A stretch of DNA of 40,334 nt from Escherichia phage AnnaIndermaur_Bas104: sequence record PQ850595.1, one strand, 5' to 3'. Every line of letters starts with the position of its first letter. The first letter of the stretch is position 1. A program made the position numbers and the translations under genes. Under the pieces are notes generated by a model. The model ran no database searches and was not told where the DNA came from. It saw only the letters and a list, made by a program, of their open reading frames with translations. Of the stretch, positions 2,787 to 39,927 are shown in pieces.

Positions 2787-2865
2787 TTTATGCAGTAGGA
2801 TTGCATAGGGATTCATTAGAGACCACGGAAGGTCGATTTTTAAGTTATTGAATATAAAGAGAAAT

Positions 2866-2888
2866 CAATTCGACTCACTATAGGGAGA
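2866..2888 (+). promoter_or_regulatory. T7 RNAP promoter phiOR (slightly degenerate -17..-12)
   Basis: caattCGACTCACTATAGGGAGA; position upstream of 19.5 as in T7. Confidence 0.7.
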
Positions 2889-3042
2889 GGAGGGACGAAA
2901 GGTTACTATATAGATACTGAATGAATACTTATAGAGTGCATAAAGTATGCATAGTAGTGTACCTAAAGTGACCTCTAAGAATGGTGATTATATTATATTA
3001 ATATCACCTTAACTTAAAGACCAACATAAAGGGAGGAGACTA

Positions 3043-3192
3043 ATGTTCCGCTTATTGTTGAACCTATTGCGGCATAGAGTCACCTACCGCTTTCTTATGG
3101 TACTTTGTGCTGCCATTGGGTACGCATCGCTTACTGGAGACCTCAGTTCACTGGAGTCTACCGTTTGCTCTTTACTCACTTGTAGCGATTAG
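3043..3192 (+). CDS. 19.5: gp19.5 homolog, 49 aa small hydrophobic protein
   Basis: MFRLLLNLLRHRVTYRFLMVLCAAIGYASLTGDLSSLES... matches T7 gp19.5; GGGAGGAG RBS; below the 60-aa ORF-track cutoff. Confidence 0.8.
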   Translation: MFRLLLNLLRHRVTYRFLMVLCAAIGYASLTGDLSSLESTVCSLLTCSD

Positions 3193-3432
3193 GGTCTTCC
3201 TGACCGACTGATGGCTCACCGAGGGATTCAGCGGTATGATTGCATCACACCACTTCATCCCTATAGAGTCAAGTCCTAAGGTATACCCATAAAGAGCCTC
3301 TAATGGTCTATCCGTAAGGTCTATACCTAAAGATAGGCCATCCTATCAGTGTCACCTAAAGAGGGCCTTAGAGAGGGCCTAAGGAGTCCCTAGAGGGTCC
3401 TTTAAAATATACCATAAAAATCTGAGTGACTA

Positions 3433-3600
3433 TCTCACAGTGTACGGACCCAAAGTTCCCCCATAGGGGTCCCTAAAGCCCAGCCAATCACCTTGAGTCA
3501 ACTTTCAGTTGACTTTGAGGGTCCCTAAGGGTTGGGGTTGGTCCTTTGGGTTTGTCTTTGAGTGTTTCGTTGTGTCCCTATCTGTTACAACCTCCTAAAG
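3433..3600. repeat. terminal repeat (single collapsed copy) / concatemer junction between genome right and left ends
   Basis: starts TCTCACAGTGTACGGACC..., homologous to the T7 160-bp terminal repeat; right-end sequence precedes it and left-end promoters follow; exact TR limits in this phage are not determinable from one copy. Confidence 0.6.
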
Positions 3601-3707
3601 TCACCTCCTAAAGTCACCTCCTAAAGTCACCTCCTAAAGTCACCTCCTAAAGTCACCTCCTAAAGTCACCTCCTAAAGTCACCTCCTAAAGTCACCTCCT
3701 AAAGTCA
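3591..3707. repeat. perfect tandem array, 9 x 13 bp (CCTCCTAAAGTCA)
   Basis: read directly; T7 has only degenerate CCTAAAG-containing copies here. Confidence 0.9.
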
Positions 3708-3777
3708 TTCCTACCGTCTACAGCCTAAAGCCTAAACCTAAAGACCCATCAAGTCAACGCCTATCTTAAAGTATCCT

Positions 3778-3801
3778 CTAAAGACCAGCCTAAAGACCAG
3801 C
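3778..3801. repeat. 2 x 12 bp tandem repeat (CTAAAGACCAGC)
   Basis: read directly. Confidence 0.7.
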
Positions 3802-3849
3802 CTAAAGCCTATCCCATAGATGCCTTGTTGTTATCTATAAAGAGATACC

Positions 3850-3888
3850 CTTTAATCATTGTCTTTAATCATTGTCTTTAATCATTGT
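3850..3888. repeat. 3 x 13 bp tandem repeat (CTTTAATCATTGT) abutting phiOL
   Basis: read directly; single copy in T7 as recalled. Confidence 0.85.
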
Positions 3889-3891
3889 CTT

Positions 3892-3914
3892 TAATACGAC
3901 TCACTATAGAGAGA
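3892..3914 (+). promoter_or_regulatory. T7 RNAP promoter phiOL (left-end, secondary origin region)
   Basis: TAATACGACTCACTATAGAGAGA. Confidence 0.75.
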
Positions 3915-3934
3915 CTACTTAAAGAGAACTTAAA

Positions 3935-3953
3935 AGAGAGAGAGAGAGAGAGA
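3935..3953. repeat. (AG)n dinucleotide microsatellite, ~9.5 units
   Basis: agagagagagagagagaga read directly. Confidence 0.85.
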
Positions 3954-3978
3954 AATTAAAGTTTTTAAAAAAAGAGTA

Positions 3979-4007
3979 TTGACTTAAAGAGTCCTAGGGG
4001 TTACTAT
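3979..4007 (+). promoter_or_regulatory. host sigma70 early promoter A1
   Basis: TTGACT -35, 17-bp spacer, TACTAT -10; position and flanks as T7 A1. Confidence 0.75.
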
Positions 4008-4104
4008 TCATCTCGTCAACGGGACAACGGCCCAAAGCCACTCCCTGAGATACCGGAGTCAACCGGATAAGTAGGCAGCCTGTAAGCCATACGAAAAACA
4101 GGTA

Positions 4105-4134
4105 TTGACAACACGCAGTAACATGCAGTAAGAT
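4105..4134 (+). promoter_or_regulatory. host sigma70 early promoter A2
   Basis: TTGACA -35, 18-bp spacer, TAAGAT -10. Confidence 0.75.
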
Positions 4135-4212
4135 ACACAGCGTCAATCGGTAGCACACGGTGTCTTCTAGGTGACTTAAGCGCACCACGGCACATAAGGT
4201 GAAACAAAATGG

Positions 4213-4241
4213 TTGACAACATGCAGTAAACACGGTATGAT
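4213..4241 (+). promoter_or_regulatory. host sigma70 early promoter A3
   Basis: TTGACA -35, 17-bp spacer, TATGAT -10. Confidence 0.75.
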
Positions 4242-4338
4242 GTACCACATGAAACGACAGTGAGTCACCACACTGAAAGGTGATGCGGTCTAACGAAACC
4301 TGACCAAAGACGCTCTTTAACAATCTGGTAAATAGTAG

Positions 4339-4626
4339 GGATAGTGTCGTGATAGGCCAACTAACTTAAGGTAACTATCATGAAGACATTAACGCGAAAA
4401 GATATACTAGAAGCACTCAAAGGTGTAGCGATAGATGCACAATGTGTTCGGGTTAAAGTGTTAGATTATACCAATAATCCGCTTGCCCCTGAAAAAGTAG
4501 CATACAGTATCACATACAAGGAGTTTGGTGTAAGCAGGAAGGTGGTCTACTACCCGAATACTGTAGGTTTTCAATTCGTAAGATAAAGATAGCGCTGGCA
4601 TTAGCCGGCCTATCACGACACTATCC
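4339..4626 (+). mobile_element. 288-bp cassette bounded by perfect 20-bp terminal inverted repeats, carrying one 68-aa ORF; possible TAG flanking duplication
   Basis: GGATAGTGTCGTGATAGGCC at 4339-4358 is the exact reverse complement of GGCCTATCACGACACTATCC at 4607-4626; TAG on both flanks; T7 as recalled has no sequence between GGTAAATAG and CTCTTGAGTGCATGAC. Confidence 0.6.
4380..4586 (+). CDS. hypothetical protein, 68 aa (cargo of the inverted-repeat cassette)
   Basis: intact ORF with ATG and TAA; uses AUA, CUA, AGG, AGA, CGG codons that are rare in the flanking T7-like genes; no recognisable homolog from memory. Confidence 0.55.
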   Translation: MKTLTRKDILEALKGVAIDAQCVRVKVLDYTNNPLAPEKVAYSITYKEFGVSRKVVYYPNTVGFQFVR

Positions 4627-4629
4627 TAG

Positions 4630-4700
4630 CTCTTGAGTGCATGACTAGCGGATAACTCAAGGGTATCGCAAGATGCCCTTTATGATATCCACTAACAACA
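4630..4700 (+). promoter_or_regulatory. RNase III processing hairpin R0.3 (approximate limits)
   Basis: CTCTTGAGTGCATGACTAGCGGATAACTCAAGGG... imperfect hairpin conserved with the T7 R0.3 site. Confidence 0.5.
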
Positions 4701-4717
4701 CTATGAGGTAACACAAG

Positions 4718-5065
4718 ATGGCTATGTTCAACACTACTTACAGCAACGTTTTCGACTACGCTTACGAAATGCTGAAAGAAAACATCCGTTATGATGACAT
4801 CCGCAGAATTGACGACCTGCACGATGCTATTCATATGGCTGCCGATGATGCGGTCCCTCACTACTATAATGACATCTTTAGTGTAATGGCAAGCGATGGC
4901 ATTGATTTTGAATTTGAGGACTCTGGTCTTATGCCGAACACCAAGGACGTAACCCGCATTCTACAGGCTCGCATCTATGAGCAACTCACTAGCGACCTTT
5001 GGGCAGACGCTGAGGACTTACTGAACGAGTACCTTGAGGAAGTCGAGGAAGAGGAAGAAGAGTAA
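4718..5065 (+). CDS. ocr: Ocr anti-restriction protein (T7 gp0.3 homolog), 115 aa
   Basis: [29 protein letters not shown]... matches T7 Ocr; acidic, poly-Glu C-terminus. Confidence 0.9.
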
Positions 5066-23383: not shown

Positions 23384-23704
23384 ATGGGTAAGAAAGTTAA
23401 GAAGGTAGTGAAGAAAGTCACCAAGCCAGTTACGAAAGCTGTGAAGAAAGTTACCAAGGAAGTGACTCGTCCTATTAAACAGGTCGCTGGTGCGCTGGCA
23501 GGTGGTGCTGGTGAAGCACAGGTGGTTGAAGTTCCACAACCAACAGCCGCTGCTACTCCTGCTGCACAAATTGTTGACGTACCTGAGAAAGAGGTTTCCA
23601 CTGAGGACGAAGCACAGACCGAAAGCGGACGCAAGAAAGCTCGTTCTGGCGGTAAGAAGTCCTTGAGTGTAGCCCGTAGCTCCGGTGGCGGCATCAACAT
23701 TTAA
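23384..23704 (+). CDS. 7.3: gp7.3 homolog (tail-associated protein), 106 aa
   Basis: MGKKVKKVVKKVTKPVTKAVKKVTKEVTRPIKQ... lysine-rich; matches T7 gp7.3. Confidence 0.85.
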   Translation: MGKKVKKVVKKVTKPVTKAVKKVTKEVTRPIKQVAGALAGGAGEAQVVEVPQPTAAATPAAQIVDVPEKEVSTEDEAQTESGRKKARSGGKKSLSVARSSGGGINI

Positions 23705-38136: not shown

Positions 38137-39927
38137 ATGGCTAACGTAATTAAAACCGTTTTGACTTACCAGTTAGATGGCTCCAAGCGTGATTTTAATA
38201 TCCCGTTTGAGTATCTAGCCCGTAAGTTCGTAGTGGTAACTCTTATTGGTGTAGACCGCAAGGTCCTTACGATTAATACAGACTACCGTTTTGCTACGCG
38301 TACTACCATCTCACTAACCAAGGCTTGGGGTCCGGCAGATGGCTACACGACCATCGAGTTGCGTCGAGTAACCTCCACGACCGACCGATTGGTTGACTTT
38401 ACGGACGGCTCAATCCTACGTGCGTATGACCTTAACGTAGCTCAGATTCAAACTATGCACGTAGCAGAAGAGGCCCGTGACCTTACCGCCGATACTATCG
38501 GTGTTAATAATGATGGTCACTTGGATGCCCGTGGTCGTAAGATTGTGAACCTAGCGTTCGCTACTGGCGACTATGATGCTGTTCCTCTGAAGCAGATTAA
38601 GGAACGTGAGAACTCTGCGTGGAACGCTGTTATTAAATCTGACGAACACGCTAACCGCTCCAACAGGGAAGCCAACCGCTCACGCGACGAAGCTGACCGC
38701 GCGAAACGTGAAGCTGACCGCTCAACCCAACAGGCAGGTGTCTCTACGTCACAGGCAGTTGAGTCCAAAACGCAAGCTGACCGTTCCAACTCTGAGGCCA
38801 ACCGTGCTAAAGGTTATGCCGATAGTATGACCACAAGCGTCGCTGAGGCCAAGAAGCAAGCTGACCGCTCTAACTCTGAGGCCAATCGTGCCCGTGATGA
38901 GGCCAATCGTGCTGCCGGAGAAGTGACTAAAGCTGCTGCTGAGGTTGTCAAGGCTGCTGCACATGTTGGGACCGCTAAGGGACATGCTGACCGAGCCAAC
39001 ACTGAGGCAAACCGTTCCAAAGGCGAGGCTGACCGTGCTAAGGCCGAGGCCGATAAGTTGGGCAACATGAATGGCCTTGCTGGTGCTGTAGAGAGAGTTC
39101 AGGGTAATAGTGTATCATGGAAAGGAGAAGGCTCTTGGGTTGGAGGTCCTGTATACAGACTTCCAACGAACAACGCATTTAGGTTCCGTATGGGTATTTG
39201 GGAAGAAGGCGACTTCCTTAAGTCTGACTTCGCCATGGACCGACCGGACGGTATAGGGTTCATAGAGTATTCAGCGGACAAGACTGGGCAACATCGTCAC
39301 CAGATGCGACTTAATCAGTTAACAATAGCTGGTGGTGTGTTAGAGTCAGATGCTGATGGTCTCATAGCTCACGCTTTCGCTGACCAGTACAACACTAAAG
39401 CTCCTTTCTTCCAACAGATTAATGTACAATCTACAAGCTCATATCATCCAATAATAAAGCAACGAACTTTCCAAGCTGGACGATGGGCAGGATGCTGGTC
39501 TATCGGCACATTACTGACTGGAGCGCATCCATCATTCCACATACATATGAGAGACGAAGCTGGAAATGATAAACTTTGGGCGTTCAATACTAATGGAGAC
39601 TTCCACGCCAATGGGGAGATTTGGGCAGATGGTGGACGTGTGGTTGTACGGAATGGCTCTTTAAACCCTGAGGGTAGAGTTTGGGGTACTGCGTATAATA
39701 ACGGATACCTAGATGACTGGATTCGGGCAAACTGGCCAGGCGATGTTTATTGGGGTCCTCAACGCTGGCAACAGAAGTGGGGAGGTTATGCAGACATTTA
39801 TGCTGGTGCTGGGGAAGCCTGCTCTGGTATAACCGCCGATGGTAGCGGTAACGTTGCGGGTGCATTCTTCCGAGCGCTTTGGCTTGGGTATCACAATGGT
39901 AATAGACGATTAGTTGCTTCCCAATAA
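38137..39927 (+). CDS. 17: tail fiber protein, mosaic: T7 gp17-like N-terminal tail-attachment domain plus heterologous coiled-coil and C-terminal receptor-binding region, 596 aa
   Basis: first ~150 aa (MANVIKTVLTYQLDGSKRDFNIPFEYLARKF...GHLDARGRKIVNLA) match T7 gp17; the remainder shows no resemblance to T7 gp17 as I recall it. Confidence 0.9.
   Translation: MANVIKTVLTYQLDGSKRDFNIPFEYLARKFVVVTLIGVDRKVLTINTDYRFATRTTISLTKAWGPADGYTTIELRRVTSTTDRLVDFTDGSILRAYDLNVAQIQTMHVAEEARDLTADTIGVNNDGHLDARGRKIVNLAFATGDYDAVPLKQIKERENSAWNAVIKSDEHANRSNREANRSRDEADRAKREADRSTQQAGVSTSQAVESKTQADRSNSEANRAKGYADSMTTSVAEAKKQADRSNSEANRARDEANRAAGEVTKAAAEVVKAAAHVGTAKGHADRANTEANRSKGEADRAKAEADKLGNMNGLAGAVERVQGNSVSWKGEGSWVGGPVYRLPTNNAFRFRMGIWEEGDFLKSDFAMDRPDGIGFIEYSADKTGQHRHQMRLNQLTIAGGVLESDADGLIAHAFADQYNTKAPFFQQINVQSTSSYHPIIKQRTFQAGRWAGCWSIGTLLTGAHPSFHIHMRDEAGNDKLWAFNTNGDFHANGEIWADGGRVVVRNGSLNPEGRVWGTAYNNGYLDDWIRANWPGDVYWGPQRWQQKWGGYADIYAGAGEACSGITADGSGNVAGAFFRALWLGYHNGNRRLVASQ

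Follow-up and report, generated by a model that had tools for sequence, protein, structure and literature searches.

Between the terminal repeat and the early promoters at the left genome end, the phage carries three perfect tandem arrays and a dinucleotide tract. We regard these, with a probability of about three in four, as copy-number variants that arose by slippage or unequal recombination in a tolerant non-coding leader. The DNA analysed (the window, 40,334 nt) is a circularly permuted Teseptimavirus (T7-type) genome with a single copy of the terminal repeat, and its nearest records are the Escherichia phages EmilieLinder_Bas103 (98.3% identity over 20 kb) and JeanTinguely (97.9%). Among relatives the arrays vary by whole units, and units have also been gained and lost in laboratory T7 lines; the slippage or recombination mechanism and the near-neutrality of the changes are what we infer. 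Arrays were called with Tandem Repeats Finder, and direct reading of the sequence and a separate repeat search gave concordant results. The region is laid out as follows:

2866 to 2888, + strand: T7-type promoter CAATTCGACTCACTATAGGGAGA, a member of the promoter repeat family (2865-2898), between gene 19 and gene 19.5
3043 to 3192, + strand: gene 19.5 (phrog_2193 match, E=1.9e-24)
3433 to 3579, + strand: terminal repeat, 147 bp, one copy in the window, boundary placed by homology
3580 to 3586, + strand: ATCTGTT, class II pause/termination signal for T7 RNA polymerase, bordering the concatemer junction on its right
3590 to 3707, + strand: main array, 9.1 copies of the 13-mer ACCTCCTAAAGTC, 100% match (Tandem Repeats Finder)
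3708 to 3777, + strand: degenerate CCTAAAG/CTTAAAG units (Tandem Repeats Finder row 3718-3743 and motif positions)
3729 to 3757, - strand: leftward E. coli promoter A0 (-35 TTGACT, 3757-3752; -10 TAGGCT, 3734-3729)
3778 to 3807, + strand: 12-mer array, 2.5 copies of CTAAAGACCAGC, 100% match (Tandem Repeats Finder)
3850 to 3895, + strand: phiOL-proximal 13-mer array, 3.5 copies of CTTTAATCATTGT, 100% match (Tandem Repeats Finder)
3892 to 3914, + strand: phage promoter phiOL, TAATACGACTCACTATAGAGAGA, annotated at the homologous place in T7, 13a and T3
3935 to 3953, + strand: (AG)9.5 microsatellite, 100% match, in the leader of phiOL and 26 nt before the -35 of A1
3979 to 4007, + strand: early E. 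coli promoter A1 (consensus scan; homologous to T7/13a annotations)
4105 to 4134, + strand: early E. coli promoter A2 (consensus scan; homologous to T7/13a annotations)
4213 to 4241, + strand: early E. coli promoter A3 (consensus scan; homologous to T7/13a annotations)

The first-pass annotation had placed the arrays at the genome left end, adjoining the terminal repeat and phiOL, and alignment to relatives confirmed this position. The left end itself, TCTCACAG, lies at window position 3433, and in the alignments the linear records of T7, 13a and Yanou begin with it. In five phages whose repeat end is annotated or known, the terminal repeat stops one base before ATCTGTT (T7, 160 bp; T3, 231 bp; phiA1122, 148 bp; 13a, 170 bp; Yanou, 159 bp), and we therefore assign positions 3433-3579 to the repeat in the window; an end inside the first 13-mer unit conflicts with the annotated records. 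A repeat search of the window found no second copy. The terminal repeat itself differs by one 12-nt unit, GTGTTGCTTTGA, between the window (147 bp) and Bas103 (159 bp). Relatives have terminal repeats of between 146 and 170 bp. The right half of the terminal repeat consists of degenerate repeats of the TTTGAGTGT type.

On the far side of the junction, the last gene before the right genome end is gene 19.5, whose homologue is annotated as 'protein Gp19.5' in AV103. The promoter that precedes it is presumably the counterpart of T7 phiOR, a name we use by analogy; a promoter at that position would drive transcription through the concatemer junction.

The 13a record annotates a 'concatemeric junction' at the place homologous to the ATCTGTT of the window. 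According to the literature, a class II signal requires the exact ATCTGTT on the non-template strand, directly preceded by A, C or T, and the polymerase is expected to stop 6-8 nt downstream of it. The context in the window, CCCT-ATCTGTT, conforms to this rule and predicts a functional signal, with a stop, from the published distance, at 3592-3594, within the first repeat unit. The 40-kb window has a single ATCTGTT on the transcribed (+) strand against five on the - strand, a skew that could reflect avoidance, within genes, of a stop signal for the polymerase. The signal has been described as tolerating no base change. Three deposited evolved T7 clones (MZ375281, MZ375276 and MZ375272) carry substitutions within it (positions ~143-150 of the records; T7 nt 161-167), either A161C or T162C plus T167A, and an independent T7 evolution line also altered base 161 (PMC3737178). 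These changes would amount to recurrent loss of the signal, and they raise the question whether T7 passaged in the laboratory can do without the junction pause or even pays a cost for it.

The main array starts 3 nt past ATCTGTT. Nine perfect copies of a 13-mer had been reported at 3591-3707, and Tandem Repeats Finder reproduced them almost to the base (3590-3707, 9.1 copies, 100% match); nine identical 13-mers cannot arise by chance. A0 lies in the ~185 nt that separate this array from phiOL downstream. Two copies of the 12-mer had been placed at 3778-3801 and three copies of the second 13-mer at 3850-3888, abutting phiOL; both arrays are present, but those ends fall 6 and 7 nt short of the actual ones (3807, 2.5 copies, and 3895, 3.5 copies, respectively). 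The last half unit of the latter overlaps the upstream edge of phiOL (TAATACGACTCACTATAG, 3892-3909). The (AG)n tract described at 3935-3953 was recovered at identical coordinates as (AG)9.5. A scan of all 40,334 nt yielded only three perfect tandem arrays of 24 nt or longer, at 3590, 3778 and 3850, all contained in 306 nt. Elsewhere in the window, imperfect tandem or dispersed repeats occur at 23395-23458 (a 33-nt unit in 1.9 copies) and at 38760-39057 (67-nt repeats with 64-78% identity).

The stretch that holds the arrays encodes nothing that we could detect. Within 3193-3994 no open reading frame (ORF) of at least 40 aa was found on either strand, and a search of 2800-4800 against Rfam returned no match at E up to 1, so that the array was dropped both as coding sequence and as a known RNA family. 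The 13-mer unit carries TAA on the + strand and TAG/TGA on the - strand, and its 13-nt period runs through all three frames. A hairpin or other structured element was dropped as well: the + strand RNA forms no structure (minimum free energy 0 kcal/mol, a worse folding than all 200 shuffles), the - strand folds with z = -0.35, and only weak inverted repeats are present. Further downstream, a 68-aa ORF at 4380-4586 (phrog_16587, unknown function) lies between promoter A3 and the ocr gene (4718-5065). Bas103 and JeanTinguely match the window only from ~4627 on and are without this ORF at that spot; Yanou matches the window from 4400.

The arrays occupy the place of a feature common to the whole T7 group. 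In T7 and its relatives a single long array of degenerate units, repeating every ~13 nt, runs from ATCTGTT to ~40 nt before phiOL, and the order terminal repeat, ATCTGTT, array, phiOL is common to the window, T7, 13a, Yanou and phiA1122. In 26 Teseptimavirus sequences, 224 of the 297 AAAG-to-AAAG intervals between ATCTGTT and phiOL measure 12-13 nt, and most others are about double that. All heptamers lie on the + strand in the representatives examined. All 13 CCTAAAG heptamers that the window has between ATCTGTT and phiOL are on the + strand, at spacings of 13 (eight times), 26, 13, 28, 12, 12 and 12 nt; genome-wide, the heptamer occurs 26 times on the + strand and three times on the - strand, where ~2.5 would be expected per strand. 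Other genera show a similar layout with a motif of their own: CCTTATG after ATCTGTA in BA14, CCATAAG and CCTACAG in K1F, and CCYTAAAG in T3. Dunn and Studier reportedly named the T7 array of short repeats SRL in 1983; a recent preprint terms the stretch an "unassigned long intragenic sequence". Our literature search found neither a description of expansion of these repeats nor an assigned function.

Position, co-oriented heptamers spaced 12-13 nt apart and non-coding character are all found in the window, and its arrays are therefore the known T7-group left-end repeat array with parts of it homogenised. They match the T7 array (nt ~171-340) in place, heptamer, orientation and period, and A0 is embedded in the array in both phages. 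The T7 units are degenerate, however, with at most 2.5 perfect copies of any one, whereas the window has 9.1, 2.5 and 3.5 perfect copies in addition to (AG)9.5, and the distance from ATCTGTT to phiOL is 312 nt in the window against 227 nt in T7. T7 had been described in the first-pass annotation as having degenerate CCTAAAG units, a single phiOL-proximal 13-mer and no (AG)n tract, which is what its sequence contains, and the proposal built on this, that the arrays are homogenised and expanded forms of the degenerate T7 repeats, is borne out by comparison with T7 and other relatives. By this comparison, the main array corresponds to an expanded form of the first units of the T7 array.

The promoters around the arrays are preserved. 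A0 has a 17-nt spacer and a start near 3722 (minus-strand reading), is intact, and lies at a position homologous to T7 A0 (start 224, hexamers at T7 231-236 and 254-259) and to the 13a annotation; a consensus promoter scan missed it because its -10 is weak. Its transcript would enter the main array after ~15 nt. Likewise, the neighbouring 13-mer expansion has left phiOL intact.

We then compared copy numbers among relatives. Perfect copies of the junction-proximal 13-mer number 16.8 in PHB20, 10.1 in Bas103, 9.1 in the window, 5.0 in the IMG/VR contig 2974600872, 4.5 in JB01, 3.9 in ESh1, 3 in PVN09 and at most 2 in T7 and most others; 13a has 2.8 and 3.1 copies of two variants, ~6 units in all. 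The same 13-mer stands in the same register directly after ATCTGTT in Bas103 (PQ850602), PHB20 (MN481366) and 13a (EU734174), none of which combines all four expansions of the window. The closest comparison is with Bas103 and JeanTinguely, which together with the window form a trio ~98% identical over 20 kb and share a distinctive right flank, ATTCCTACCGTCTACAG, yet have 10, 2 and 9 units, respectively. Bas103 has both flanks as in the window, but only one phiOL-proximal 13-mer, (AG)3 and a terminal repeat 12 nt longer. A second such comparison is that of PHB20 with the IMG/VR contig, which share both flanks and differ by 16+1 against 4+1 units (17 vs 5).

The differences within the trio are for the most part whole units. 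Gaps in the main array measure 13, 91 (7 x 13) and 104 (8 x 13) nt, and elsewhere they amount to 12 nt inside the terminal repeat and to 12-13-nt units in the middle array. The phiOL-proximal 13-mer differs by two units, aligned as a 24-nt gap (some gaps of 24-25 nt, about two units, occur), and the (AG) tract differs by dinucleotides; gaps of 1-2 nt are also present, mostly in the poorly aligned stretch between phiOL and A1. Over a wider set of relatives, the 12-mer array ranges from 2 to 4.8 copies. The phiOL-proximal 13-mer is found once in T7, Bas103 and Yanou and as two imperfect copies in 13a, JB01, ESh1 and PHB20, where it has been duplicated independently. Single-copy relatives such as Yanou have a CTTTAAT on either side of it, direct repeats that make it a ready substrate for slippage. 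At the site of (AG)9.5 the closest relatives have (AG)3. A tract of ~(AG)14 lies directly at phiOL +1 in the Yersinia pestis phages phiA1122 (~375-402) and YpP-Y (904-932) and is a second, independent purine microsatellite in the phiOL leader. The suggestion that the region is hypervariable between isolates thus held when copy numbers were compared, the range being 2 to 17 units.

Gain and loss of units can also be followed in T7 itself, whose array is homologous to that of the window phage. In one evolution line, 'a 13 base duplication at base 183' went to fixation (PMC3737178). If the left-end numbering of that construct is taken to equal wild type, the first unit (171-183) closes with base 183, the A of ATCTGTT is base 161, and base 235 falls within the A0 -10. 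Conversely, the deposited mutant clone T7_250L has lost exactly 13 nt, one unit. Two others, T7_220S and T7_200S, have lost 119 and 145 nt, A0 included, in deletions that join two CCT/CCTAAAG repeats. The terminal repeats of evolved clones show 18-nt and 11-nt microhomology deletions, which fit the readiness with which T7 deletes between short direct repeats. If these clones are viable isolates, a property we take solely from the titles of their records ('clone', 'complete genome'), most of the array is dispensable in the laboratory, and clones lacking it suggest that its length matters little. T7_250L, T7_220S and T7_200S all retain the first one and a half units beside ATCTGTT, which may accordingly be needed. 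More than 40 T7 records are identical across the array region, although many may be reference-guided, and the T7 units are imperfect.

Taken as copy-number variants, the arrays could have arisen in a simple manner. Identical adjacent units, or 7-nt direct repeats such as CTTTAAT...CTTTAAT, would serve as substrate for strand slippage or unequal recombination during phage DNA replication, by which whole units would be gained or lost. Such changes in length would be tolerated because nothing is encoded there and because ATCTGTT, A0, phiOL and A1 stay intact; drift would then leave perfect, recently expanded arrays whose lengths differ between near-identical phages. In this respect they resemble variable-number tandem repeats (VNTRs) and microsatellites that change by replication slippage, with perfect units, whole-unit changes and near-identical genomes that differ, and close relatives do differ by whole units (9/10/2; 17 vs 5). 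Other classes of repeat fit less well. Phase-variation loci switch a phenotype, and the window array has no such layout: its parts are neither in ORFs nor in the -35/-10 spacers of A0, A1 or phiOL. The units run head to tail with no spacers, unlike a CRISPR array. Origin iterons are direct repeats to which a dedicated initiator protein binds, beside an AT-rich unwinding region. At T7-type origins priming depends on transcription by T7 RNA polymerase from a phage promoter, no initiator protein taking part, and the layout of the main array appears unlike that of iterons.

Drift in length need not mean that the units are without function. Heptamer, orientation and spacing are conserved in diverged phages, so that the units are probably under some selection, and by this sequence conservation the heptamers themselves probably have some function. 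Their number might matter quantitatively as well. It is unlikely, in our estimate, that the array is a cis-element with a dosage effect, in which added units would reinforce the concatemer-junction cut or set its timing; the units would be read by the small terminase gp18, by gp19 when it completes packaging, or by RNA polymerase halted together with lysozyme at ATCTGTT. Several observations argue for such an element: the array begins 3 nt after the pause signal, with the expected stop inside its first unit, CCTAAAG has a strict strand bias (26 + vs 3 -) and a regular spacing of 12-13 nt, BA14 and K1F carry genus-specific heptamers at the same place, and the first unit is kept in every sequence examined, deletion clones included. 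Published work also puts the paused polymerase, gp18 and gp19 at the junction, maps packaging specificity to within 5% of the termini, and describes the T7 Pac signal as PacB plus PacC; our literature search for pacB/pacC coordinates gave nothing usable.

What speaks against a dosage effect is the copy number itself, which ranges from 2 to 17 and is unconstrained even between ~98% identical genomes, together with the evolved T7 clones without 119-145 nt of the array; in addition, our literature search found no protein reported to bind these repeats. A precedent for short oriented repeats adjoining a concatemer cut site exists in phage lambda, where the R sites of cosB and the 7-bp cosQ are recognition repeats for terminase. 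The T7-group repeats resemble them in this arrangement, but evolved T7 clones lacking most of the array exist, which is indirect evidence against a requirement for most of it. The more ambitious proposal that the heptamer array is a dosage-sensitive signal helping to define the concatemer cut or the duplication of the terminal repeat, read by terminase translocating to the left end or by the polymerase-lysozyme complex at ATCTGTT, with the 2-17 variation tuning packaging between strains, we find very unlikely. The first-pass annotation had likewise raised functional tuning of copy number, which the data do not favour, given that no value is conserved across the range of 2 to 17 and that T7 clones lack one unit or 119-145 nt. 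Its statement that the region acts in concatemer processing and packaging is documented, in the literature consulted, for the junction and the pause signal, but not for the repeats.

Right next to the terminal repeat, the locus interrupts or corrupts short-read assemblies, so that copy numbers and genome lengths in public records need caution. We consider it improbable that the copy numbers or expansions are products of short-read assembly, and still less probable that the expansion is wholly spurious. There are nevertheless grounds for suspicion. In metagenome ERZ1036441 the assembly of a T7-like genome is broken in two at the same 13-mer array, inside which NODE-724 ends (last 60 nt) and NODE-383 begins (first 55 nt), and an IMG/VR contig also starts inside the array. 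In the IMG/VR and metagenome scans, loci with at least three tandem units numbered only one and two, respectively, all at a contig end. Artefactual repeats near the terminal repeats of T7-like short-read assemblies have been confirmed by Sanger sequencing in published work, and the 131-nt array of Bas103 would be the floor that a k=127 de Bruijn assembler reports for longer arrays. The published artefacts, however, are duplications of ~79 bp and not 13-mer arrays, and the array of the window, at 118 nt, is shorter than both k=127 and a 150-nt read and hence resolvable in principle. Moreover, expanded arrays occur in independent records from several laboratories (Bas103, PHB20, JB01, ESh1 and the end-annotated 13a), and gain and loss of units is documented in T7 laboratory lines. 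The possibility of an assembly artefact, raised at the outset, is thus countered for the expansion by independent records and remains a reasonable caveat for the exact count: the expansion is corroborated, and the number nine is provisional pending the reads.

Finally, the array could act as RNA, a reading we hold to be highly improbable. Within the 13-mer unit, TCACCTCCT is identical to a nine-base stretch of the 16S rRNA 3' tail, and RNA from A0 would therefore carry AGGAGGTGA; the leftward transcript would hold 8-9 perfect Shine-Dalgarno sequences of this kind and possibly act as a decoy for the 30S subunit, while a rightward transcript would bear anti-Shine-Dalgarno mimics. We found AGGAGGTGA eight times on the - strand of the array (3591-3700) and in one other copy in the window, on the + strand, and in the reverse complement of the array the copies have no start codon following. 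A0 is intact and would reach the array after ~15 nt, the + strand RNA is wholly unstructured, and published work describes a sigma-70 TGnTA promoter that overlaps the junction signal of T7, with TGTTA present in the window. Against this, the arrays of T3, BA14 and K1F are without the CCTCC extension, T3 has its A0 within the terminal repeat, from where the array would not be transcribed, A0 and most of the array have been lost from evolved T7 clones, and the resemblance to the 16S tail was spotted after the fact. A more speculative form of the same reading would make the A0 RNA, with its start-codon-less Shine-Dalgarno sequences, an early decoy for ribosomes.

T7 primase recognises GGGTC, TGGTC and GTGTC, and as its sites were found on the - strand in the 12-mer units (3733, 3773 and 3785) and nowhere in the 13-mer array, an array of primase sites cannot explain the main array.

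The arrays mark the most length-variable spot in Teseptimavirus genomes, which could serve as a marker for strain typing. Copy numbers in public records may be floors at this assembly-breakpoint locus. If copy number does affect processing of the junction, the natural alleles provide a ready-made test series. Natural and laboratory evidence indicates that the length of the array is largely unconstrained, while its first unit and the heptamer, orientation and spacing are conserved, and this narrows where a function of the repeats is to be sought.
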